A stretch of DNA of 64,000 nt, taken from positions 64,001-128,000 of the IMG/VR virus record IMGVR_UViG_3300027963_004416. One strand, written 5' to 3'. The translations under genes were made by a program, and so were the position numbers. Below are positions 11,777 to 54,797 of the stretch, one piece after another. Numbering within the stretch: position 1 is the first letter of the stretch; each line of letters opens with the position of its first letter. The notes beneath the pieces are model-generated. The model had not been told where the DNA came from and searched no databases. It saw only the letters and a program-made list of their open reading frames with translations. Origin of the DNA: a virus.

Positions 11777-11848
11777 ATGTGGACAAAGCCAATTGCTCAA
11801 GACAAGCGTTTCGGGTTTGAAGTCACGATGTATATTGCATCGCGATAA
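11777..11848 (+). CDS. pqqA: PQQ precursor peptide, 23 aa MWTKPIAQDKRFGFEVTMYIASR
   Basis: MW.KP....RFGFEVTMY with the cross-linked E-x3-Y; AAAGGAG RBS; missed by ORF track. Confidence 0.95.
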   Translation: MWTKPIAQDKRFGFEVTMYIASR

Positions 11849-11899
11849 TAAGTAATATATAATATGCCCGGGGCCTCTGCGAAAGTACGCCTCGGCTCT

Positions 11900-11921
11900 A
11901 GACCGCTAGCGGTCTTTTTTT
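11900..11921 (+). terminator. Rho-independent terminator after pqqA
   Basis: AGACCG-CTAG-CGGTCT followed by T run. Confidence 0.85.
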
Positions 11922-11973: not shown

Positions 11974-12153
11974 ATGATTATCTGTGTTTGTAGAGAAATT
12001 TCGGATAACGATTATTCTTCTGACGAGGAACTTAAAAATCGTATCATGCAGAATGATTTTAAATGTGGTATTTGTCAGACTAAATATATTATGAACGATG
12101 AGCTTTTATCTGTACAACCAGAAGCTTATCAAAAGAATTGCTGTATGAAGTAG
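11974..12153 (+). CDS. Bfd-like [2Fe-2S] protein, 59 aa
   Basis: MIICVCREISD...CGIC (CxC + CxxC); AGGA RBS; missed by ORF track. Confidence 0.7.
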   Translation: MIICVCREISDNDYSSDEELKNRIMQNDFKCGICQTKYIMNDELLSVQPEAYQKNCCMK

Positions 12154-12444
12154 AAGGAAAGGTGTTCTGGACGCGAGTTCGATTCTCGCCATCTCCACCA
12201 TAAGCGTATTGCCTGGTATGAGTGCCTATAGGCTTAATCAGAGTCCAATAAGTAATACGCTTATGATGGGGATGTCAAGGTTTCGACAGGGCAATGAGTA
12301 CAGATATGGACAGCACGTCAGGCGATCGACGTTAATGAAGCAGAACTAGTAAACGCAAACGATAGCGATTACAACATGGCTCTTGCTGCCTAACAGCTAA
12401 GACCGGAGTCTTGATAGTTGAACTTGGCAACAGAATCAACTATC
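12139..12444 (+). ncRNA. ssrA: Circularly permuted (two-piece) tmRNA; tag ANDSDYNMALAA
   Basis: T-arm GCGAGTTCGATTCTCGC + CATCTCC-A-CCA (ends 12200) precedes 5' GGGGATG (12268) with G3.U pair; tag ORF 12355-12393; terminal hairpin with GGCAACAGAA loop; outer ends approximate. Confidence 0.92.
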
Positions 12445-12468
12445 ATTTATTTCTATGAGGCTAAAAAT

Positions 12469-12756
12469 ATGACAAAAGACGAGATTTATAATCTAATTAT
12501 AGTAACAATGAAGAAGGATTATGATATCGATATTAGCGGCATGCCTGCCAATACACCTATATCTACTATTAAGGAGATGGCTCCAAAGCTAGACTCGTTG
12601 GAATATCTTCAGTTTATTTTTGGTATGGAAGACAAGACGGGCATTGAATTACCTGAAGGCAGCCCGGTGCCAGAGACAATAGGAGATATTTTAGATGCTT
12701 TTGTCACAGCTTTGGGAAATAGACTTAATATATCAGTTAATTATAAGATGGATTAA
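12469..12756 (+). CDS. Acyl carrier protein
   Basis: LDSLE phosphopantetheine Ser, ED..GIELP, TIGDI; ATG 12469 with GAGG RBS. Confidence 0.8.
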   Translation: MTKDEIYNLIIVTMKKDYDIDISGMPANTPISTIKEMAPKLDSLEYLQFIFGMEDKTGIELPEGSPVPETIGDILDAFVTALGNRLNISVNYKMD

Positions 12757-12759
12757 GAA

Positions 12760-13497
12760 GTGATTTTAAAATCACATCCATTTACTAATCGGTTTGTTAG
12801 CTTAGCAAATATTATTATTGCTTTAGTGGGAACATTTTTCATAGTTCCCAGTATTAAAATACTTATTTTATCATTATTTTTATTTTTTATTTTATTCTGG
12901 TTTGGTCATAATATAGGGCAGCATAGGTATCTATCACACGAATACTTTTCTCTTAGCAGACCAGTGCATTATGTCATAGTTTATCTAGCAAATGCAGTTG
13001 GGTATGGCTCGGCATTTGGCTGGGCTACCTTTCATCGCAATCATCATCTAACTAGTGATACGGGAAAAGATCCGTATCACTTTGATAGCCCCTTGAAAGC
13101 TTTTTTAAACATTACTAATTATGATCATATAAGGTATTTTAGAAGTAAGCTCTTAGGTGATCGTTTTGTAGTTTTTACACATAAATACTATCATCCATTT
13201 TTGATAGTTAATAGTATAGTACTGTTTTTAATAAGTCCTGTTCTATGGATCTCGTACCACTACTCGGTCATTATGTGTTATTTTGCATTTATCTGGACCG
13301 CAGTCTTTTCTCACAAAAAGACAATATTTTCATATAAGAACTTCGACGGCCCGGCTTATAACGATTTTATATACGGCTACATTTTAGGTGATTGGCACAA
13401 TAACCACCATACCAACCCACATATTCAGAATCAAAAAGTAAAATGGTGGGAATTTGATATAATCGATTTTTTTATTAGGAAAATTAAAAGTGTATAA
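12760..13497 (+). CDS. Membrane fatty-acid desaturase 1 (delta-9/DesC-like family)
   Basis: HRYLSH, HRNHH, WHNNHH, WWEFD; TM segments. Confidence 0.9.
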   Translation: MILKSHPFTNRFVSLANIIIALVGTFFIVPSIKILILSLFLFFILFWFGHNIGQHRYLSHEYFSLSRPVHYVIVYLANAVGYGSAFGWATFHRNHHLTSDTGKDPYHFDSPLKAFLNITNYDHIRYFRSKLLGDRFVVFTHKYYHPFLIVNSIVLFLISPVLWISYHYSVIMCYFAFIWTAVFSHKKTIFSYKNFDGPAYNDFIYGYILGDWHNNHHTNPHIQNQKVKWWEFDIIDFFIRKIKSV

Positions 13498-14263
13498 ATG
13501 GCCTTTAGATTTTATTTTTAAGTCTCGCGATCACTTACAAAAATATATTATTACAATGCAATTCGTGCTCGCAGTTGTCGCATTTAGCACGTATGGGGCA
13601 AATGCATGGTTTATAAGTTTAAGTTTTCTATGGTACCTTGTAATGCTACATGTAGGACACAACGCAGGGCTTCATAGATACTTCTCGCACAGCTCATACA
13701 AACTATCGAAGCCCTGGCATATCTTTATTACGTTCATTTCTACACTAGTGGCGTTCGGCTCACCGCTTGGATACGCTATAATTCACAAAACCCATCATCG
13801 CTACTCAGATACCCCTGATGATCCACATCAACCTAAAAAACCCGTAAAGACTTTTTTCTTCATGTTTAATTCAAGTGATGAAAAAATATCACCGCTTTAC
13901 GCGAGAGGTCTTAGAGACTACTGGATAAGCTTTACTCATAGCTACTACTTACTAATACTTGTCACTTTTTATATTGCGTTATTGGCTATAGATCCAATAG
14001 TTGCGCTTTCCTATAACGTAGGAATTTGTGGAATTTTACTTGGAACAGGGTGGGTTAATGTTGTGAATCATACTAGTAATTTTCTTTCGTATAGAAATTT
14101 TCAAACTAAAGATAAATCAAACAACGATTTAGTAGCAGGGTATTTACTAGGCGAATGGCATAACAATCACCACGCTAATCCGACGTCTTATACTCAAAAA
14201 GTAAAATGGTGGGAACTAGATATACCTACATTTATTATAAAGTCTATAAAGAATGAAGATTAA
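13490..14263 (+). CDS. Membrane fatty-acid desaturase 2
   Basis: HRYFSH, HKTHH.YSDT..DPH, WHNNHH, WWELD. Confidence 0.9.
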   Translation: MYKWPLDFIFKSRDHLQKYIITMQFVLAVVAFSTYGANAWFISLSFLWYLVMLHVGHNAGLHRYFSHSSYKLSKPWHIFITFISTLVAFGSPLGYAIIHKTHHRYSDTPDDPHQPKKPVKTFFFMFNSSDEKISPLYARGLRDYWISFTHSYYLLILVTFYIALLAIDPIVALSYNVGICGILLGTGWVNVVNHTSNFLSYRNFQTKDKSNNDLVAGYLLGEWHNNHHANPTSYTQKVKWWELDIPTFIIKSIKNED

Positions 14264-14984
14264 AAGATATATTTTATTTCTAGGAATTTTTCTTACCGGG
14301 CTTTATTTTTTAATTGACTCTGTTATAAATGACAGCCCCATTAATTACTATTTGTTAACATTTCTAGTTTACATACAGATCGTCTTTAATCAATTAGTAC
14401 TTCATAGAATTTTTAGCCACCGCGCTTTTAAAATATCCTGGTATCTTAGAGATATTTTCTGTTGCTTTACACTTTTAAGTATGTTTAGTTCTTCAAGAAC
14501 CTACATTGCAATGCATAGATTACATCACAGATATACAGATACCGAACTAGATCTGCACGGACCACACCAGGGGTTCTTTACTCTTATAGATATGCATATC
14601 GTTGACTCTAAGCTTATAGGTAAGATTGACAAGAATGAATCAAGAATAGAAACATTCATTAACACATACTACTATGAGCTTACATATGGCACTATATTTT
14701 TATCCTTGTTAATTAACACCGTTTTCTTTAAATACTTAATTCTTAGTGTAATGTTTAATTATATCTGTATTGATGTATTTAATTATTTTTCACATAAAAA
14801 AACACCGTTTAACTATAGAAACTACGACACCTTAAATAACTCTCACAATAATTTATTTTTAGGTATATTTGGTGGTGACTGGCATAATAATCACCATGCC
14901 TTCCCTAACGAGCCTAATCAAAGAAAACGCTGGTGGGAATTCGATCCGATATTCTATTTTGGTAAAGTATTAGAAAAGATATGA
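14253..14984 (+). CDS. Membrane fatty-acid desaturase 3
   Basis: HRIFSH, HRLHH.YTDT..DLH, WHNNHH, WWEFD. Confidence 0.9.
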   Translation: MKIKRYILFLGIFLTGLYFLIDSVINDSPINYYLLTFLVYIQIVFNQLVLHRIFSHRAFKISWYLRDIFCCFTLLSMFSSSRTYIAMHRLHHRYTDTELDLHGPHQGFFTLIDMHIVDSKLIGKIDKNESRIETFINTYYYELTYGTIFLSLLINTVFFKYLILSVMFNYICIDVFNYFSHKKTPFNYRNYDTLNNSHNNLFLGIFGGDWHNNHHAFPNEPNQRKRWWEFDPIFYFGKVLEKI

Positions 14985-16159
14985 GAAGAGTAGTTATAAC
15001 AGGCGCCGGCGCGATAACACCTATAGGTGGTGATTTAGATACAATAGAACACAGGCTATACAATAGTATTTCAGGTCTAAAATGGAACGATAGCCATAAT
15101 ACCGTGAGCGGCTCGGTAGATGAAAATATTGACTCTATGTTCTCATCATCAGATACAAATCTTACGGATAAAGTAACTAAACTCTCCTGGATTTCCTATG
15201 AGAGGGCCCGTGATGATTCAGGTATAGTACCTGAAGGTATATTTTATGGAGTAGGGTTTGGCGGAGCCCTTACAGTGGAAGAATGCTATAGTAATATTTC
15301 TAACGGTAAGAAAATTAACCCTATCTCCATTATTAAAGCGATGCCCAATCAGGGTGCAAGCTATATTTCTTTGAGAGAAAAAATCACCGGGCCGTGCATC
15401 TCATATACCACAGCGTGCTCATCGTCCGCCGTAGCATTAGGAGAGGCATATTTAAGAATAAAGAGTGGTGCTTTAAAAAACGCCGTAGCAGTTGGCTCGG
15501 AATGCTTAAATACCAAACTTAACGCCAGCTGGTGGCGCGGTATAGGCGCAATTAATGAAGATAAGGAATATAGTTTTAATGCGGTTAGACCATATTCAGC
15601 AGATAGAAAAGGGACAGCCATATCAGAAGGATCAGTATCATTAATCTTAGAAGATTTAGAATACGCTTTATCCCGTAAAGCCAAAATATACTGTGAGATT
15701 ACGGGGTATGGCTTATCTACAGGGACAGAAACATTTACCAAGCCCTGCAGGTCTTCCCAAGCACGAGTAATAAAAGAATGCTTAAAAGATTTAAATACTA
15801 AAGATATATCTTATATTAATAGTCATGGTACAGGGACCCCGGTAGGTGACTTAATAGAACTTCAAGCTATAGAAGAAGTATTCGGCAAAGAAGTAGTAAA
15901 TATACCTATCTCTTCAACTAAATCCCTCACTGGCCATCTATTGGGTGCAGCTGGTACCTTTGAAACTCTAGCTTGTATTTTTGTTATAAAAAATAATAGA
16001 ATTATACAAAATAACTTTATTAATGGGTTAGATGCAGATATAAGTAGTAATATATTCTTACCTACCATACCTGTGTTTAACCCTATTAATACTGTACTAA
16101 ATAATTCCTTTGCATTCGGTGGTACTAATGTATGTCTTGGATTAACAAAATGGAAATAA
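14981..16159 (+). CDS. Beta-ketoacyl-ACP synthase (FabF/FabB-like)
   Basis: Catalytic C-H-H: TACSSS, HGTGT, KSLTGHLLGAAG; NSFAFGGTN. Confidence 0.92.
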   Translation: MRRVVITGAGAITPIGGDLDTIEHRLYNSISGLKWNDSHNTVSGSVDENIDSMFSSSDTNLTDKVTKLSWISYERARDDSGIVPEGIFYGVGFGGALTVEECYSNISNGKKINPISIIKAMPNQGASYISLREKITGPCISYTTACSSSAVALGEAYLRIKSGALKNAVAVGSECLNTKLNASWWRGIGAINEDKEYSFNAVRPYSADRKGTAISEGSVSLILEDLEYALSRKAKIYCEITGYGLSTGTETFTKPCRSSQARVIKECLKDLNTKDISYINSHGTGTPVGDLIELQAIEEVFGKEVVNIPISSTKSLTGHLLGAAGTFETLACIFVIKNNRIIQNNFINGLDADISSNIFLPTIPVFNPINTVLNNSFAFGGTNVCLGLTKWK

Positions 16160-16764
16160 GACCTAGAAAGTTTAGCTTTAAATTAACAAAATACTGGTTT
16201 GATAATAATAAATTTAAAACTTTTTTTTGGAATGCTAATTCATTATTATTTGAGCAAAATGAATACATCTTCTGCAGACTTCTAAGTTTTTACAAAAAGA
16301 AAGTTAAAGACAAAACATTATTAGCTGAAATAGATATTTTATTCGGACAAGAAAGCTGGCATAGTTATAATCATAAAGCATTTAATGAACAATTATCATT
16401 AAACTACGATATAAGCTCTATTCAAAATAAAGCAAAAAGGCTAGCCGGGCGCGTTCTTATCTTAAAAAATAGTGATAAGCTATCGTATGCAGTTTGCTTT
16501 GAAGCTATGATAGTTAGAGTATGTAAGCTTTTACTAAAGGAAAAATTTACAAATACTGACCCTGAAATCAAAAACTTCTGGCTTTGGCATACTCAAGAAG
16601 AAATAGAACACGGCTATATTGCACGTAAACTATACAGATATTTTAAGTTTTCAAGATTACTAAATATAATACACATGCTCAAGCTTCTTATACTATACAT
16701 TGACTTTATAGTTTTTTCTTTAAAAGAATTTTACTTACAGGATAGACGACATGCAATTATCTAA
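16150..16764 (+). CDS. Predicted metal-dependent hydrolase family (ferritin-like di-metal) protein
   Basis: I.PR...F start, SLLF...E..F, GQESWH...H, WH..EEIEH. Confidence 0.75.
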   Translation: MEIRPRKFSFKLTKYWFDNNKFKTFFWNANSLLFEQNEYIFCRLLSFYKKKVKDKTLLAEIDILFGQESWHSYNHKAFNEQLSLNYDISSIQNKAKRLAGRVLILKNSDKLSYAVCFEAMIVRVCKLLLKEKFTNTDPEIKNFWLWHTQEEIEHGYIARKLYRYFKFSRLLNIIHMLKLLILYIDFIVFSLKEFYLQDRRHAII

Positions 16765-17218
16765 AAACTTTACCTTAGAAGAATTTACCAAGAGCGACAC
16801 AGCAACAAAGAAGGGTATTGATAATACCCCTCAGGGTGTCCATATGGAAAACTTAAAGAACTTAGTAGAAAAGGTTGTGCAACCTGTTCGAGAGCATTAC
16901 GGGAAGCCCGTAAAGGTAAACTCAGGGTATAGAGGTGCTAAGCTTAATGAAGCTGTAGGTGGCGCTGCAACAAGCCAGCATTGCAACGGTGAAGCGTGTG
17001 ATATTGAAGTCCCCGGCATTCCAAATGCTGATTTAGCTGCTTACATTAGAGATAACTTACCCTTTGACCAGCTTATTCTCGAATTTTATACACCAGGTAT
17101 TCCAGACTCAGGGTGGGTGCATGTTTCACTCAAGAAAGACGGCCCACAACGTAAGCAATGCCTTACAGCACTTAAAGAAGGCGGCAAGACCGTTTACAAG
17201 CCAGGATTTTTAGCATAA
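16751..17218 (+). CDS. Peptidase M15A (peptidoglycan peptidase, putative endolysin)
   Basis: LSKNFTLEEF, SGYR...LN.AVGG, SQH..GEACD, WVHVS. Confidence 0.9.
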   Translation: MQLSKNFTLEEFTKSDTATKKGIDNTPQGVHMENLKNLVEKVVQPVREHYGKPVKVNSGYRGAKLNEAVGGAATSQHCNGEACDIEVPGIPNADLAAYIRDNLPFDQLILEFYTPGIPDSGWVHVSLKKDGPQRKQCLTALKEGGKTVYKPGFLA

Positions 17219-17851
17219 TTGTTTACTGTAATTAAAGTTCATGTAGATAGTAACCCTACCTGCAGCGAAACAGTAAATGCCGGTCTTTTAAGCAAAGAGA
17301 GTGTTAAATACTTTGATAAAGACGGCTTTGAGCTTACCCCTTTAGAGCAAGCTTACTACTGCGCTGCAGGATATCAGAATAAGATTGGTAACGGGTGCTT
17401 ATACCATACCTGCTGGCAAGAACCCTGGTTTGATATAAGCAAGGAAGATCCATTTTTTATAGATCACACTATGATACTACATAGATGTGATTTTACTGAT
17501 GAAGCTGCAATACAACTACACAAGTATCAAAAAAGACTCCCACAACTTAACTATCTTATTAATTGTAAGAAGAAATGGGGGTTAGATTTTAGTTTAGATT
17601 ATTTAAATCATGATGATGATAGAGTGTATGAAATAGTTCATATAGAACAAGATTCAAACTCATATGAACACTTTATCAACCTTAAAGGTCAGTTTGAAGA
17701 ATTTGTTATATCCACTGACTGGAACCACGCAGCTAAGGTACTACTTAAAGAGAAGCACCGTTGGCTACCTCTCGAAGGAATGGCTCGTAATGACTGGAAA
17801 GCTAAGTTTTTTGGCTATGGTCAGGCTGAGAGTACCATCAAGTCAGTATAA
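17219..17851 (+). CDS. Hypothetical protein
   Basis: 210-aa ORF, TTG start. Confidence 0.7.
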   Translation: MFTVIKVHVDSNPTCSETVNAGLLSKESVKYFDKDGFELTPLEQAYYCAAGYQNKIGNGCLYHTCWQEPWFDISKEDPFFIDHTMILHRCDFTDEAAIQLHKYQKRLPQLNYLINCKKKWGLDFSLDYLNHDDDRVYEIVHIEQDSNSYEHFINLKGQFEEFVISTDWNHAAKVLLKEKHRWLPLEGMARNDWKAKFFGYGQAESTIKSV

Positions 17852-17902
17852 CTGGCTTTAATATTCCTTTACATCTATAATCAGAAAAATTTAGGAGATA
17901 GC

Positions 17903-18454
17903 ATGGATAATATCCAATCTATTACCAAAGGTCTTCTGTATTTTACTCTAGGTGTTATGTTTGTCAATTCGTTCTTTGTTTTTGGCCACTATCTTACAAC
18001 TTTATACACAAGTAAAATTACTAAGCCGGTACCAGAAGTAGCTGTTACAAAGGATACACTAGCTACACCAAGACAGCTTGAATGTCTTACCAGAAACATT
18101 TATTATGAAGCAGCAACTGAACCTTTTGAAGGTAAACTTGCAGTAGCACAGGTAACTGTAAATCGTGCTAGGAGCGATACATTCCCTAACGATATTTGTC
18201 AGGTTGTGTATCAAAAAACTTACAAGAATAATAAAAAACCAGTCTGTCAATTTTCGTGGTATTGTAAGCAAACCAATATGCCTATTTACTATGATAATTA
18301 CCTAGAATCAGAAAAAGCGGCTAGAAAGATACTTATGGAAGGGTTTATGTTAGAAAAGGTGAAGGGTGCTTTATATTATCACGCTGACTATGTTCACCCT
18401 AACTGGAATAAACAGAGAGTAGCAAAAATAGGGAGACATATTTTTTATAAATGA
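17903..18454 (+). CDS. SleB-like cell wall hydrolase (Hydrolase_2), N-terminal TM
   Basis: CL..NIYYEA..E...GKLAVAQV..NR, CQFSW, YHADYV.P.W, IGRHIFY. Confidence 0.92.
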   Translation: MDNIQSITKGLLYFTLGVMFVNSFFVFGHYLTTLYTSKITKPVPEVAVTKDTLATPRQLECLTRNIYYEAATEPFEGKLAVAQVTVNRARSDTFPNDICQVVYQKTYKNNKKPVCQFSWYCKQTNMPIYYDNYLESEKAARKILMEGFMLEKVKGALYYHADYVHPNWNKQRVAKIGRHIFYK

Positions 18455-52847: not shown

Positions 52848-54797
52848 ATGAAAATATTTGTGATAAATTTAGAAGCCAGGCCTGATCGCCTGGCTTTTAT
52901 GTCTGAGCAGCTTAAAGATGTTGAATGGCAAAGACATTCAGCGCTGAATGGCCATAGTTTAACTATGGATGCAATCGTTCAATTAGATTTCGCACCATAC
53001 AGCAAATGGATTGATCCTCTTCTAGATAGAAAATTAACCAATACGGAAATAGCAGCTGCTATCTCTCATTATCAGTTATGGGAAAAGTGTGTTGAGCTTA
53101 ATGAGCCAATTCTTATTTTAGAAGACGACTCACAGCTTGTTGGTGATTTAGATTTAAAAGAACTAGAATTATTAAGTAATGAATATGATATAGTTTATCT
53201 TGATCACAGAGAGATGTTTCCTGACCTATCCGTAGTCGGAGAAAAATTCGTCAGGCCCTTTTATCCCTACTGGAACAATGCATATGTTATTACACCCAGG
53301 CTTGCTCGTTATATTATAAATTCACCCTATAGATACAATATAATACCGGTGGATGAGCTGTTTCCTATTTTAAGCGGAATTGCTTTTAACGATCATTGTC
53401 TAGGTAATAAAGAAATTTTTACTTCACTCCAGGAATTACTTATGACGCTACCAACTAACCCGGTAGCGTACAAAGAGAGTATTTTTAAACAACTACCCAG
53501 AAAAATTATGGGATCTGATATTGAAAGTGGAAGATCGATTATGAATACAGTTCATGTGTTAACAGTGGCAACAGATGAAACAAAACTAAAGTATCTGGAT
53601 ACTTCAGCTCAAAAGTTTGGAATAAAATTTATTAATCTAGGTAAAGATGTCGTATGGGACGGGGGAAACATGATCGGGCCCGGTGGTGGCCAGAAGTTAA
53701 AACTAGTTAAGAACTATGTTAGTCAAATACCAGAGCAGGACATTGTTCTATTCGTAGACGGATATGATGTTTTTTTTAATGACGATCTACAGACAATAGT
53801 CGATCGATTTAATGGATTTGACTGTAAAGTTCTTTTTGCAGGAGAGAAGAATTGCTGGCCAGATAAGTCTATTGCTCCTCTGTTCGACGGTGACACTGAC
53901 TACAAATACTTAAACAGTGGAGTGTATATTGGATACGCAGGTTATGTTTGCTCTCTCATAGAGAATTATATACAAAACTCTGATGATGATCAACTTTATC
54001 TTCAAAAGAAATACATTGTGGATTTATTTGATTCAAAAAAACTGTACAAGATAGATGTCGAGAATTATATATTTCAGTGCTTGGCAGGAGCGGTTGATGC
54101 AGTAACTGTTAAATCAAACGGGCAGTTATTGAATTCTGAAACTAGATGTTGCCCCTGTATACTCCATGGTAACGGTGGCGATTCAGTAAAGAAAGATTTT
54201 GATAGATTATTTAACACAATCTTCAATGAGAGTGACATAGGTATTGAATTTATGACGCCATCTGGCTATGAAATTGTAGGTCCAGAAATTTTAGAAATTG
54301 ATTTACTTACACCAGATATGTGCAAGCAGCTCGTTAATCTTGCCGATAGCCATGGTAAATGGGAGCCTATGAGTGGTGATAAGTTTCCTGCGCAGGAAAT
54401 AAGAATACGAGAAATTGATATTAATCTGTTTAATAAACTAGAACAACATCTTAAAGATAAAGTTTACCCTTTAATAGAGCAATACTGGTTTCCTTTAAGC
54501 ATGTACGGTTTAAGAGATGCCTTTATTATTAAATATACTCCAGAGACACAAGCTAAGCTAAAATGTCACCATGATGCTTCTCTTGTATCCGGTAATGTTA
54601 AACTTAATAGCGAATATACAGGCGGAGATACTTATTTCTACAGGCAGAATTATTCAAACATAAATACATCTGTCGGTAAAATGACTATGTGGCCGGGACA
54701 GGTTACACATGGTCATGAAGGGAGAGAGGTAACCTCTGGTGCAAAATACAATCTAGTAATTTGGACGAGTAGAAGACCTGGAGATATAAACTACTAA
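52848..54797 (+). CDS. Three-domain enzyme: GT25 + PLOD/LH3-type glycosyltransferase + 2OG-Fe(II) lysyl-hydroxylase-like domain
   Basis: GT25: VINL..RPDR, SH..LW, ILEDD; PLOD-GT: TVAT, W.GG...GGGQK, FVDGYD, EKNCWPD, LNSG.YIG, DDDQL; LH: HHDAS, PG..TH.HEG..VT.G..Y. Confidence 0.9.
   Translation: MKIFVINLEARPDRLAFMSEQLKDVEWQRHSALNGHSLTMDAIVQLDFAPYSKWIDPLLDRKLTNTEIAAAISHYQLWEKCVELNEPILILEDDSQLVGDLDLKELELLSNEYDIVYLDHREMFPDLSVVGEKFVRPFYPYWNNAYVITPRLARYIINSPYRYNIIPVDELFPILSGIAFNDHCLGNKEIFTSLQELLMTLPTNPVAYKESIFKQLPRKIMGSDIESGRSIMNTVHVLTVATDETKLKYLDTSAQKFGIKFINLGKDVVWDGGNMIGPGGGQKLKLVKNYVSQIPEQDIVLFVDGYDVFFNDDLQTIVDRFNGFDCKVLFAGEKNCWPDKSIAPLFDGDTDYKYLNSGVYIGYAGYVCSLIENYIQNSDDDQLYLQKKYIVDLFDSKKLYKIDVENYIFQCLAGAVDAVTVKSNGQLLNSETRCCPCILHGNGGDSVKKDFDRLFNTIFNESDIGIEFMTPSGYEIVGPEILEIDLLTPDMCKQLVNLADSHGKWEPMSGDKFPAQEIRIREIDINLFNKLEQHLKDKVYPLIEQYWFPLSMYGLRDAFIIKYTPETQAKLKCHHDASLVSGNVKLNSEYTGGDTYFYRQNYSNINTSVGKMTMWPGQVTHGHEGREVTSGAKYNLVIWTSRRPGDINY

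Follow-up and report, generated by a model that had tools for sequence, protein, structure and literature searches.

A six-gene operon of a T4-like phage that may lengthen and desaturate acyl chains on a phage-encoded carrier protein

The NodF and NodE proteins of rhizobia are a dedicated acyl carrier protein (ACP) and a FabF/FabB-like ketosynthase (KS), which take the other steps from host FAS II and produce an unusual acyl group that is passed on to a glycolipid. The phage operon described here resembles this pair in its private ACP and its private, predicted elongating KS, for which the reductive steps would come from host FAS II as well. However, NodFE gains double bonds without oxygen-dependent desaturases, whereas the phage operon encodes three of them.

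A dedicated ACP beside membrane desaturases is also found in the cay/pgn, JamABC, and TtuABC systems (PMC9828172, PMC9322674, PMC8406139). The polyyne or terminal-alkyne cassette consists of jamABC with a pair of desaturases along with a thioesterase and a rubredoxin (PMC8406139), and both JamB and the cay/pgn desaturase triad work on ACP-bound chains (PMC9828172; bioRxiv 10.1101/291195). As in the phage operon, cay combines three desaturases in one cluster with a ferritin-like helper, CayK, which is likened here by description and which can substitute for rubredoxin in supporting the cay desaturases (PMC9322674). The cay/pgn enzymes have HXXHH and QXXHH boxes and include one delta-12-like member, whereas the boxes of the phage enzymes are all His and of the SCD1 type; the trait shared by JamB and the phage desaturases is the SCD1-like template (bioRxiv 10.1101/291195).

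Viral desaturases have so far been read as single membrane-fluidity helpers. The SCD-type desaturases characterized from viruses and bacteria, namely, the cyanophage vFADs, use lipid-bound chains without an ACP (PMC5776448). The vFADs of cyanophages and cryopeg brine are, like the enzymes here, phage-borne, SCD-type, and in some cases multicopy (PMC5776448, PMC7300359), but they are described as stand-alone lipid desaturases, whereas an ACP and a KS flank those studied here. For the freshwater pelagimyophages PMP-D, or "fonsimyophages," fabF and a stearoyl-CoA desaturase have been listed (Zaragoza-Solas et al. 2020, PMC7029224). These phages are similar to ours in being T4-like, of the HTVC008M/cyanomyophage kind, in having fabF and a desaturase together, and in the 2OG-Fe(II) oxygenase, which is present here in the loci of relatives. 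The mention is a single sentence in which no ACP, multiple desaturase paralogues, PF10118, operon, or pathway is named (PMC7029224).

Gene content of the operon

The window, i.e., the whole 64,000-nucleotide stretch of DNA that was analyzed, belongs to an uncultured, T4-like, freshwater-type phage whose gp32 is 58.6% identical to that of HTVC008M and whose permuted tmRNA scores best on a betaproteobacterial model. Whole-record searches covered 145.7 kb, about 85% of the complete genome. Positions 12469 to 16764 hold six intact plus-strand genes, each overlapping or abutting the next, and the operon looks cotranscribed and conserved:

12469-12756, + strand: ACP-like gene, 95 aa; GAGG Shine-Dalgarno sequence 8 nt upstream
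12760-13497, + strand: Des1, SCD1-type membrane desaturase; 3-nt gap after the ACP gene
13490-14263, + strand: Des2, PF00487 desaturase; 8-nt overlap with Des1
14253-14984, + strand: Des3, PF00487 desaturase; 11-nt overlap with Des2
14981-16159, + strand: KS, FabF/FabB-type ketosynthase; ATGA overlap with Des3
16150-16764, + strand: PF10118 gene, ferritin-like di-iron protein; 10-nt overlap with the KS gene (the ORF opens at 16132, and the conserved start is 16150)

An earlier note on this DNA had described six tightly coupled or overlapping genes, encoding an ACP with an LDSLE motif, three divergent desaturases with intact His boxes, a KS with a complete Cys-His-His triad, and a ferritin-like ExxH protein. 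This description held for all of the genes, as detailed below.

The ACP-like protein is acidic (pI 4.3) and carries a putative phosphopantetheine site, Ser43, within KLDSLE. Pfam PP-binding gave no match even at an E value of 10. NCBIfam ACP models matched the protein end to end (1-76 of 80; E, 5e-4), below the cutoff (20.3 bits versus 66). By these two sets of curated models the protein is at best a divergent member. Among 13 phage homologues, K40, D42, S43, E54, and D55 (K-x-D-S and E-D) are invariant. In the AF2 model (pLDDT, 80.6), a four-helix ACP fold is predicted (helices 3-18, 31-37, 43-57, and 71-92), with the Asp-Ser pair opening helix II and Ser43 located at the N terminus of this helix. 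Foldseek matches of the model in the PDB were ACPs and related carrier proteins, many of them subunits of larger complexes (TM, 0.6 to 0.77; E, 6e-3 or weaker). Furthermore, a gene for a mini 4'-phosphopantetheinyl transferase (mini-AcpS) lies directly 5' of the ACP gene in distant relatives (L045, L016, L008, and L009; a subthreshold PF01648 gene in L045, L016, and L008), which argues that the small protein is really a carrier.

Des1, Des2, and Des3 each keep all nine His ligands of SCD1-type enzymes. The boxes scored (HxxxxH, HxxHH, NxxxH, and HxxHH) are those of SCD1/DesC-type ("first") desaturases and were found throughout except at NxxxH of Des1, where Asn is replaced by Ala; the residue is Trp in the three Des1 orthologues, and no other replacement was tabulated in the set. 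The phage desaturase profile matches the SCD1 structures 4YMK/4ZYO at an E value of 5e-36. Des1 has no Pfam match and matches NCBIfam DesA weakly, with every His box kept in the alignment; hydrophobic hairpins were found in it, and its clade has an SH-aLRT value of 99 to 100. Des2 (PF00487, 45.9 bits) is the most conserved paralogue, with 63 to 76% identity to its orthologues, and Des3 (PF00487, 51.6 bits) represents a fast-evolving class. All of the paralogues fall within one phage clade of the tree, in which Des1 and Des2 are sister classes and Des3 and Des4 branch deep. The best bacterial matches share about 30% identity and have neither ACP nor PF10118 genes as neighbors; in the phage collection, matches were limited to a 26% identical protein of Pelagibacter phage Mosig and to two records under the name Acinetobacter phage MD-2021a. 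As judged from the alignments, the loss of the conserved Asn in one paralogue class is new here.

The KS contains both domains (PF00109 and PF02801), and Cys146, His282, His319, and K314 are invariant in its clade. Its best PDB matches are FabB/FabF over the full length (E, 1e-55), and its nearest cellular relatives are 38% identical. We rejected its identification as the FabF equivalog, the housekeeping KAS II, since TIGR03150 gave 277 bits versus a cutoff of 493.75. The enzyme is predicted to be a catalytically complete, decarboxylating, elongating KS of the FabF/FabB type. Relative to its closest relative, L191, the KS gene has a dN/dS of 0.098, and the C-terminal 104 aa of Des3 are identical to those of L191 at a dS of 0.095; the operon is under purifying selection where this is measurable (KS and the end of Des3).

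The last protein, a short phage form of 204 aa with a hydrophobic C-terminal helix, matches PF10118 at 119.9 bits versus a gathering cutoff of 33.2. All 41 family members compared have E38, E68xxH71, E118, and E151xxH154. The AF2 model (pLDDT, 96.4) aligned in VIA-align with RNR R2, CmlI, and AurF (Z, 14.2 to 13.9, over 191 to 197 residues) and with aldehyde-deformylating oxygenase and UndA (Z, 11). Because a Z of about 14 is the noise level stated by VIA-align for helical bundles (typical best Z), the di-iron assignment leans on the ligand motif. The protein is predicted to be a ferritin-like di-iron carboxylate protein, and the hydrolase reading of the family ("Metal_hydrol") was rejected, since the conserved residues are those of di-iron oxidase ligands.

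Recurrence in related phages

In some two dozen IMG/VR contigs of the T4-like kind, ACP and KS genes, usually with one desaturase gene, adjoin gp59/gp32 (ACP-KS loci L006 to L024, L039, L045, and L082). Wherever a phage locus examined here extends upstream, an ACP gene lies just 5' of the KS region. In most loci the desaturase gene begins before the ACP gene has ended, and ACP-Des-KS remains the gene order despite 40 to 60% sequence divergence. An expanded form, with three or four desaturase paralogues and PF10118, is present in metagenomic relatives. Conservation of the gene set elsewhere, on which the earlier note had staked its reading beforehand, was indeed found: the six-gene set recurs at 35 to 63% identity in L003, L005, and L083/84 and partly on the end-cut L085. 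ACP, three desaturases, KS, and PF10118 are whole in L003 and L083/84, while L005 and L085, each end-cut, show parts of the set, including a fourth desaturase class. No cellular gene cluster combining ACP, desaturases, KS, and PF10118 was found.

The PF10118 gene co-occurs with Des3-class desaturases, even where no KS is nearby, and follows the desaturase in L086, L087, and L088; the Des3-class clade (seven rows; SH-aLRT, 99) takes in the desaturases of the pairs on L086 and L087. Bacterial PF10118 genes stand alone. The apparent travelling of PF10118 with one deep desaturase class, as seen in these gene neighborhoods and the tree, is new here.

These loci bear on a simpler explanation, which we consider rather unlikely, that the genes are independent auxiliary genes, with the desaturases acting on host membrane phospholipids to raise fluidity, the role presumed for cyanophage and cryopeg-brine vFADs, the ACP and KS boosting or deregulating host fatty acid synthesis, and no desaturation taking place on the ACP. 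The desaturases are of the SCD1 type with standard delta-9-like His boxes, and delta-9 activity on lipids has been proven for vFADs of the SCD type (PMC5776448), which form multicopy arrays in cold-brine phages (PMC7300359). Moreover, L006, L007, and L024 have ACP-KS but no desaturase, and no KS or ACP was seen with the Des-PF10118 pairs on L086 to L088, contigs that are short or cut close downstream. This explanation is at odds with the ACP-desaturase overlap and the kept ACP-Des-KS order, and the cyanophage vFADs gave no match to the phage desaturases at an E value of 1e-5. It also leaves the retention of three to four paralogues to be accounted for: being long diverged, and one having an altered metal site, they exceed what fluidity control by a single delta-9 step would need.

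Missing parts and alternative products

The earlier note had seen no acyl-AMP ligase, thioesterase, or PPTase, and we found this to be true of the whole 145.7-kb record (about 85% complete): it encodes no PPTase, no fatty acyl-AMP ligase (the JamA/CayA/PgnD part of polyyne cassettes; PF00501 at an E value of 0.1), no thioesterase (PF00975 and PF03061), no rubredoxin (PF00301), and no ferredoxin or other electron donor. An acyl-AMP ligase was not seen in the loci of relatives either. The absence of PPTase, acyl-AMP ligase, thioesterase, rubredoxin, and ferredoxin across the record, as far as profile searches reveal it, is new here. Since the record lacks an acyl loader, a release enzyme, and an electron donor, the host must supply much. 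The ORF at 11974-12153, which had been called Bfd-like, was dropped as a Bfd-type [2Fe-2S] protein: it gave no Pfam match at an E value of 10 and no PF04324 match, overlaps the tmRNA, and has no BLASTP match in the locus of any relative.

The earlier comparison with polyyne clusters therefore stands in part: the dedicated ACP with three desaturases is there, but the ligase, thioesterase, and rubredoxin are absent and a KS is present. A thiotemplated pathway of the polyyne or terminal-alkyne type, in which a desaturase complex would act on an ACP-bound chain to give a conjugated polyene or acetylenic, reactive lipid for defense, signaling, or host takeover, appears quite improbable to us. In its favor, the cay/pgn clusters are built around a dedicated ACP and three desaturases, all needed together (PMC9828172); the cay desaturases are supported by a ferritin-like protein (PMC9322674), and the phage operon encodes a ferritin-like di-iron protein; JamB was modelled on SCD1 (bioRxiv 10.1101/291195); and the lost Asn near the metal site of the Des1 class would fit a changed chemistry. 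Nevertheless, the three missing parts, which are defining ones, argue against such a pathway, as does the KS, which is absent from polyyne clusters yet constantly accompanies the ACP in the phage loci; in addition, all of the paralogues arose within a phage clade in which the single-copy members have the look of ordinary desaturases.

The chance is slim that the operon serves as a donor pathway, in which an unusual acyl-ACP would be passed to an acyltransferase modifying lipid A/LPS, a lipoprotein, or a virion protein. NodF/NodE offer a precedent for a private ACP and KS, and in L088 the gene directly 5' of Des-PF10118 encodes a hexapeptide-repeat protein, a class that includes acyl-ACP-dependent acyltransferases of the LpxA/LpxD type. 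However, no acyltransferase lies in or beside the operon within the window, where the next gene encodes an M15 endolysin.

Proposed pathway and its meaning

The constancy of ACP-KS, the expanded desaturase classes, and the linked di-iron protein point to a real multistep pathway acting on acyl chains in T4-like phages that abound in aquatic habitats, and the likeliest role of the operon is to make unsaturated fatty chains within infected cells. Our preferred reading, which we hold to be probable by a modest measure, is a host-dependent phage module in which an acyl chain, carried by the phage's own ACP, is lengthened and repeatedly desaturated. Against it count the ACP-free action of the characterized SCD-type desaturases on lipid-bound chains, the PPTase and the other parts missing from the record, and the failure to find a cellular gene cluster of this composition. 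Host AcpS would prime the phage ACP, the host's FabD and its reductive enzymes of FAS II would service it, and the phage KS would lengthen the chains that it carries. The desaturase paralogues could introduce double bonds at distinct sites of the chain, whether it is still bound to the ACP or has already passed into lipid. The PF10118 protein may be a redox or accessory partner of the Des3-class desaturase or may carry out one further O2-dependent step. The product would most probably end up in the membrane lipid of the infected cell.

A bolder version, which is unlikely when taken as a whole, is that the phages own a thiotemplated lipid pathway without a cellular counterpart, in which the ACP, a desaturase complex, and the KS would yield a fatty acid that is polyunsaturated, conjugated, or acetylenic. 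The complex would comprise three or four neofunctionalized SCD-type desaturases, one metal-site-altered and one paired with the PF10118 partner.

If the preferred reading is true, four functions (carrier, elongation, desaturation, and di-iron partner) would form a compact set with which unusual fatty acids could be made. The PF10118 family, widespread in bacteria and annotated as "metal-dependent hydrolase," would gain a testable first function, and infection could alter which unsaturated lipids reach freshwater food webs.

Gene content of the operon

The earlier note described a cluster of six genes at window positions 12469-16764, and this was confirmed: all six lie on the + strand and abut or overlap their neighbours. 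The operon DNA gave no nucleotide match in the phage collection. PHROGs contains no family for the ACP, the KS or the PF10118 protein, and the desaturases match phrog_35201 only, a family of unknown function.

Genes of the operon (window coordinates)
12469-12756, +, ACP-like gene
12760-13497, +, Des1, SCD1-type membrane desaturase
13490-14263, +, Des2, SCD1-type membrane desaturase
14253-14984, +, Des3, SCD1-type membrane desaturase
14981-16159, +, KS
16150-16764, +, PF10118 gene (MEIR start common to relatives; ORF open from 16132)

Identification of the first gene product as an ACP is supported by homologue invariance, predicted fold, acidity and gene neighbourhood. Pfam gave no match, and NCBIfam ACP models aligned over their full length at an E value of 5e-4, models that alone merely hint at an ACP. 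However, K-x-D-S and a downstream E-D are invariant in 13 phage homologues, the protein is acidic (pI 4.3), and Ser43 sits at the N-terminus of helix II in an AlphaFold model (pLDDT 80.6). The Foldseek PDB matches listed for this model comprise ACPs and related carrier proteins, in many cases as subunits of larger complexes; they span the whole protein at TM 0.6-0.77, with weak E values (best, 6e-3). Furthermore, single-desaturase cassettes of distant relatives contain genes of about 110 aa that resemble 4'-phosphopantetheinyl transferases (PPTases) and overlap the beginning of the ACP gene; they score 19-23 bits against PF01648 (below the cut-off of 25). Since such a gene adjoins the ACP in these relatives, it lends independent support to the small protein as a putative carrier. 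An HMM of the relatives' gene found no mini-AcpS in the phage record (nothing below E 1).

Mini-PPTase-like genes overlapping the ACP start in related contigs (L numbers, phage or metagenomic contigs carrying related loci)
L045:6637-6969
L016:6515-6844
L008:1391-1732
L009:3000-3332

The KS, previously credited with a complete Cys-His-His triad, contains both KS domains and matches FabB and FabF structures over its full length; Cys146, His282 and His319 are invariant in its clade. A housekeeping FabF was ruled out by the score (277 bits versus a cut-off of 493.75) and by a steep drop in identity, from 47-94% in phage relatives to 38% or less in cellular proteins. Its dN/dS is 0.098 against L191, the contig most closely related to the window. 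Among cultured GenBank phages there was no close homologue, and the 28 weak matches look like host DNA within phage entries.

All three desaturases align with SCD1 (profile versus 4YMK, E 5e-36), possess the hydrophobic hairpins and retain all nine histidines of the SCD1 type, in line with the intact His boxes read earlier from the sequence. When 75 sequences from phages, metagenomes and bacteria were placed in one tree, every paralogue fell inside one phage-dominated clade, where the three form separate classes. The Des1 and Des2 classes are sisters, for which a tandem duplication is the simplest origin, and the Des3 class is deep and fast-evolving (7 rows, SH-aLRT 99); a fourth class is present in L005 and L085. 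An Asn located 4 residues ahead of the TM4 histidine is kept in every other phage or bacterial desaturase tabulated, but it is replaced in the Des1 class, by Ala in the window and by Trp in three orthologues. In SCD1 structures, this Asn holds a water ligand of the second metal, and thus Des1 may catalyse altered chemistry or serve a role other than catalysis. Identity to the best bacterial relatives is about 30%. In 80 loci of the nearest cellular desaturases, a fabF-like gene was nearby in 3 and no ACP or PF10118 neighbour was found; these relatives did not reveal a donor lineage. Matches in phage records were confined to Pelagibacter phage Mosig (26%) and two records named Acinetobacter phage MD-2021a.

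Gene orders in multi-desaturase loci
Window: ACP-Des1-Des2-Des3-KS
L003 and L083/84: ACP-Des3 class-Des1-Des2-KS
L085: Des3 class-Des1-Des2-Des4-KS

The lack of an acyl-AMP ligase, thioesterase and PPTase, noted earlier for the window, extends to the whole 145.7-kb record, which has no match to a PPTase, an AMP-binding ligase, a type II or hotdog thioesterase, rubredoxin, plant-type ferredoxin or Bfd. The ORF at 11974-12153, once taken for a Bfd-like electron donor, was rejected: it has no family match and no BLASTP match in the relatives' loci, and it overlaps a tmRNA gene. These results bear on the proposal that the operon encodes a polyyne pathway like those of the bacterial cay/pgn, JamABC and TtuABC clusters. 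We regard this as quite improbable, because the ligase, thioesterase and rubredoxin that mark membership are all missing and a KS is left unexplained. A dedicated acyl module, the other part of the earlier reading, best fits the data.

A conserved core and an apparent PF10118 unit

A single-protein KS query of viral contigs returned no match, and an alignment-based KS profile was needed for the IMG/VR scan. This profile recovered some two dozen T4-like contigs, the longest of 364 kb, whose KS is 40-47% identical. Wherever upstream DNA is present, an ACP gene lies just upstream of the KS. In most of these contigs, the ACP stop is overlapped by the start of a single desaturase gene, and most of the loci adjoin gp59/gp32; three have ACP-KS without a desaturase, and two have the order ACP-KS-Des. 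Thus, the synteny search suggested by the earlier note revealed a recurrent ACP-KS core, usually with a desaturase. Since ACP-KS is invariable and the desaturase varies in presence and position, we reasoned that the former is the constant core and desaturation the usual addition. The plain view that the desaturases are independent membrane-fluidity genes accounts for the enzyme type but explains neither the strict coupling to an ACP nor the retention of divergent paralogues, and we consider it unlikely.

In relatives, a 2OG-Fe(II) oxygenase gene (PF13640) is translationally coupled to the operon. The operon of the window has no such neighbour, and the sole PF13640 match in the record falls inside a 649-aa ORF (window 52848-54797).

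2OG-Fe(II) oxygenase genes coupled to related operons
L003:316-933, upstream of ACP
L083:6346-6966 (L083/84), upstream of ACP
L191:1483-2696, downstream of PF10118

The last gene of the operon encodes the protein described before as ferritin-like, a description supported chiefly by its ligands. E38, E68-x-x-H71, E118 and E151-x-x-H154 are invariant across 41 phage and bacterial PF10118 members. E/ExxH/E/ExxH is the classic ferritin-like di-iron set, and "predicted metal-dependent hydrolase" is a misleading label for the family. The PF10118 profile had no match among PDB sequences, and the structure model (pLDDT 96.4) gave weak Foldseek matches (E at least 0.1). A Foldseek-independent search yielded Z scores of 14.2-13.9 to RNR R2 and the arylamine oxygenases CmlI and AurF, and about 11 to aldehyde-deformylating oxygenases, UndA and COQ7. 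Because helical bundles lacking a known relative typically reach a best Z of about 14 with this tool, the di-iron assignment rests on the ligand motif. The Atlas model points the same way, with TM 0.71 to AurF-family proteins.

The short phage form of PF10118 (about 205 aa, with a hydrophobic C-terminal helix) is rare: 1.8 billion representatives include four clusters of it at 50% identity. In three contigs (L086, L087 and L088), its gene comes straight after a desaturase gene, which in L086 and L087 is of the Des3 class; no KS or ACP was seen on these contigs, which are short or end soon after. The short form is absent from every single-desaturase cassette. Thus, the operon appears to combine two units, ACP-Des-KS and Des3-PF10118. 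Relative to window 14669-16764, L191 is 100% identical at the Des3 end and 94% in KS, and its PF10118 protein is just 38% identical. Judged from this alignment, the sharp mosaic at the KS/PF10118 junction marks the unit boundary as an evident recombination point, with PF10118 alleles apparently swapped between closely related phages. Bacterial PF10118 genes stand alone, so that their context is uninformative, and no desaturase adjoins the long-form genes in IMG/VR. A predicted complex of Des3 with the PF10118 protein scored 0.00, which counts neither for nor against binding. At L088:5485-7552, a hexapeptide-repeat protein gene (weak Pfam match) precedes the desaturase and PF10118, next to AAA and QueD-like genes; this locus may be a related acyl-transfer variant.

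The phage and its host

The virus record (145.7 kb, linear, estimated 85% complete), of which the window covers bases 64001-128000, belongs to a T4-like myovirus, with gp59 and gp32 directly downstream of the operon. The best match of gp32 is Pelagibacter phage HTVC008M (58.6%), followed by cyanomyophages (about 56%). ARAGORN identified a circularly permuted, two-piece tmRNA at window 12091-12445 (+) with the tag ANDSDYNMALAA. It scored 141 bits with Rfam tmRNA_permuted, and the betaproteobacterial RF01850 was top among clan models (108 bits). This tmRNA type hints at a betaproteobacterial host rather than SAR11, despite the pelagimyophage-like look of the phage. A 23-codon ORF, MWTKPIAQDKRFGFEVTMYIASR, lies at window 11778-11849 (+), followed by a terminator-like hairpin at 11900-11915. 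It had no NCBIfam match at E 0.01; we take it to resemble the PQQ precursor PqqA through an E-x-x-x-Y motif. Combined with the type of tmRNA, this ORF would be consistent with a methylotroph as host. Two cell-wall hydrolase genes are placed among the replication genes, away from the structural genes.

Genes following the operon (window coordinates)
16751-17218, +, M15 peptidase (endolysin phrog_894), next after the PF10118 gene and outside the lipid set
within 16751-18454, +, 210-aa gene between the two hydrolase genes
within 16751-18454, +, SleB/Hydrolase_2-like protein, the second hydrolase

A proposed host-dependent acyl module

Viral desaturases are already known (PMC5776448, PMC7300359), and one sentence of Zaragoza-Solas et al. 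(PMC7029224) lists fabF, stearoyl-CoA desaturase and 2OG oxygenase as unique to freshwater pelagimyophages. In the papers we searched, there was no description of the ACP, the operon, the paralogue classes or the PF10118 link. New in the window are a form of the operon enlarged to three or four desaturase classes, the lack of a phage-encoded AcpS, the change at the metal site of Des1 and the pairing of PF10118 with the Des3 class.

JamB and the cay/pgn triad show that membrane desaturases of the SCD1-like type may need their substrate bound to an ACP and that three can work jointly (PMC9828172; bioRxiv 10.1101/291195), and genetic work on CayK shows such desaturases being supported by a ferritin-like protein (PMC9322674). 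We infer that the phage desaturases would act on an ACP-bound chain and give a putative unsaturated acyl product.

Taken together, the operon is best explained as a module that depends on the host and uses a private ACP to lengthen and desaturate acyl chains. The rhizobial NodF/NodE pair of private ACP and KS is able to redirect host FAS II, and by this precedent the phage ACP and KS would redirect the FAS II of the infected cell.
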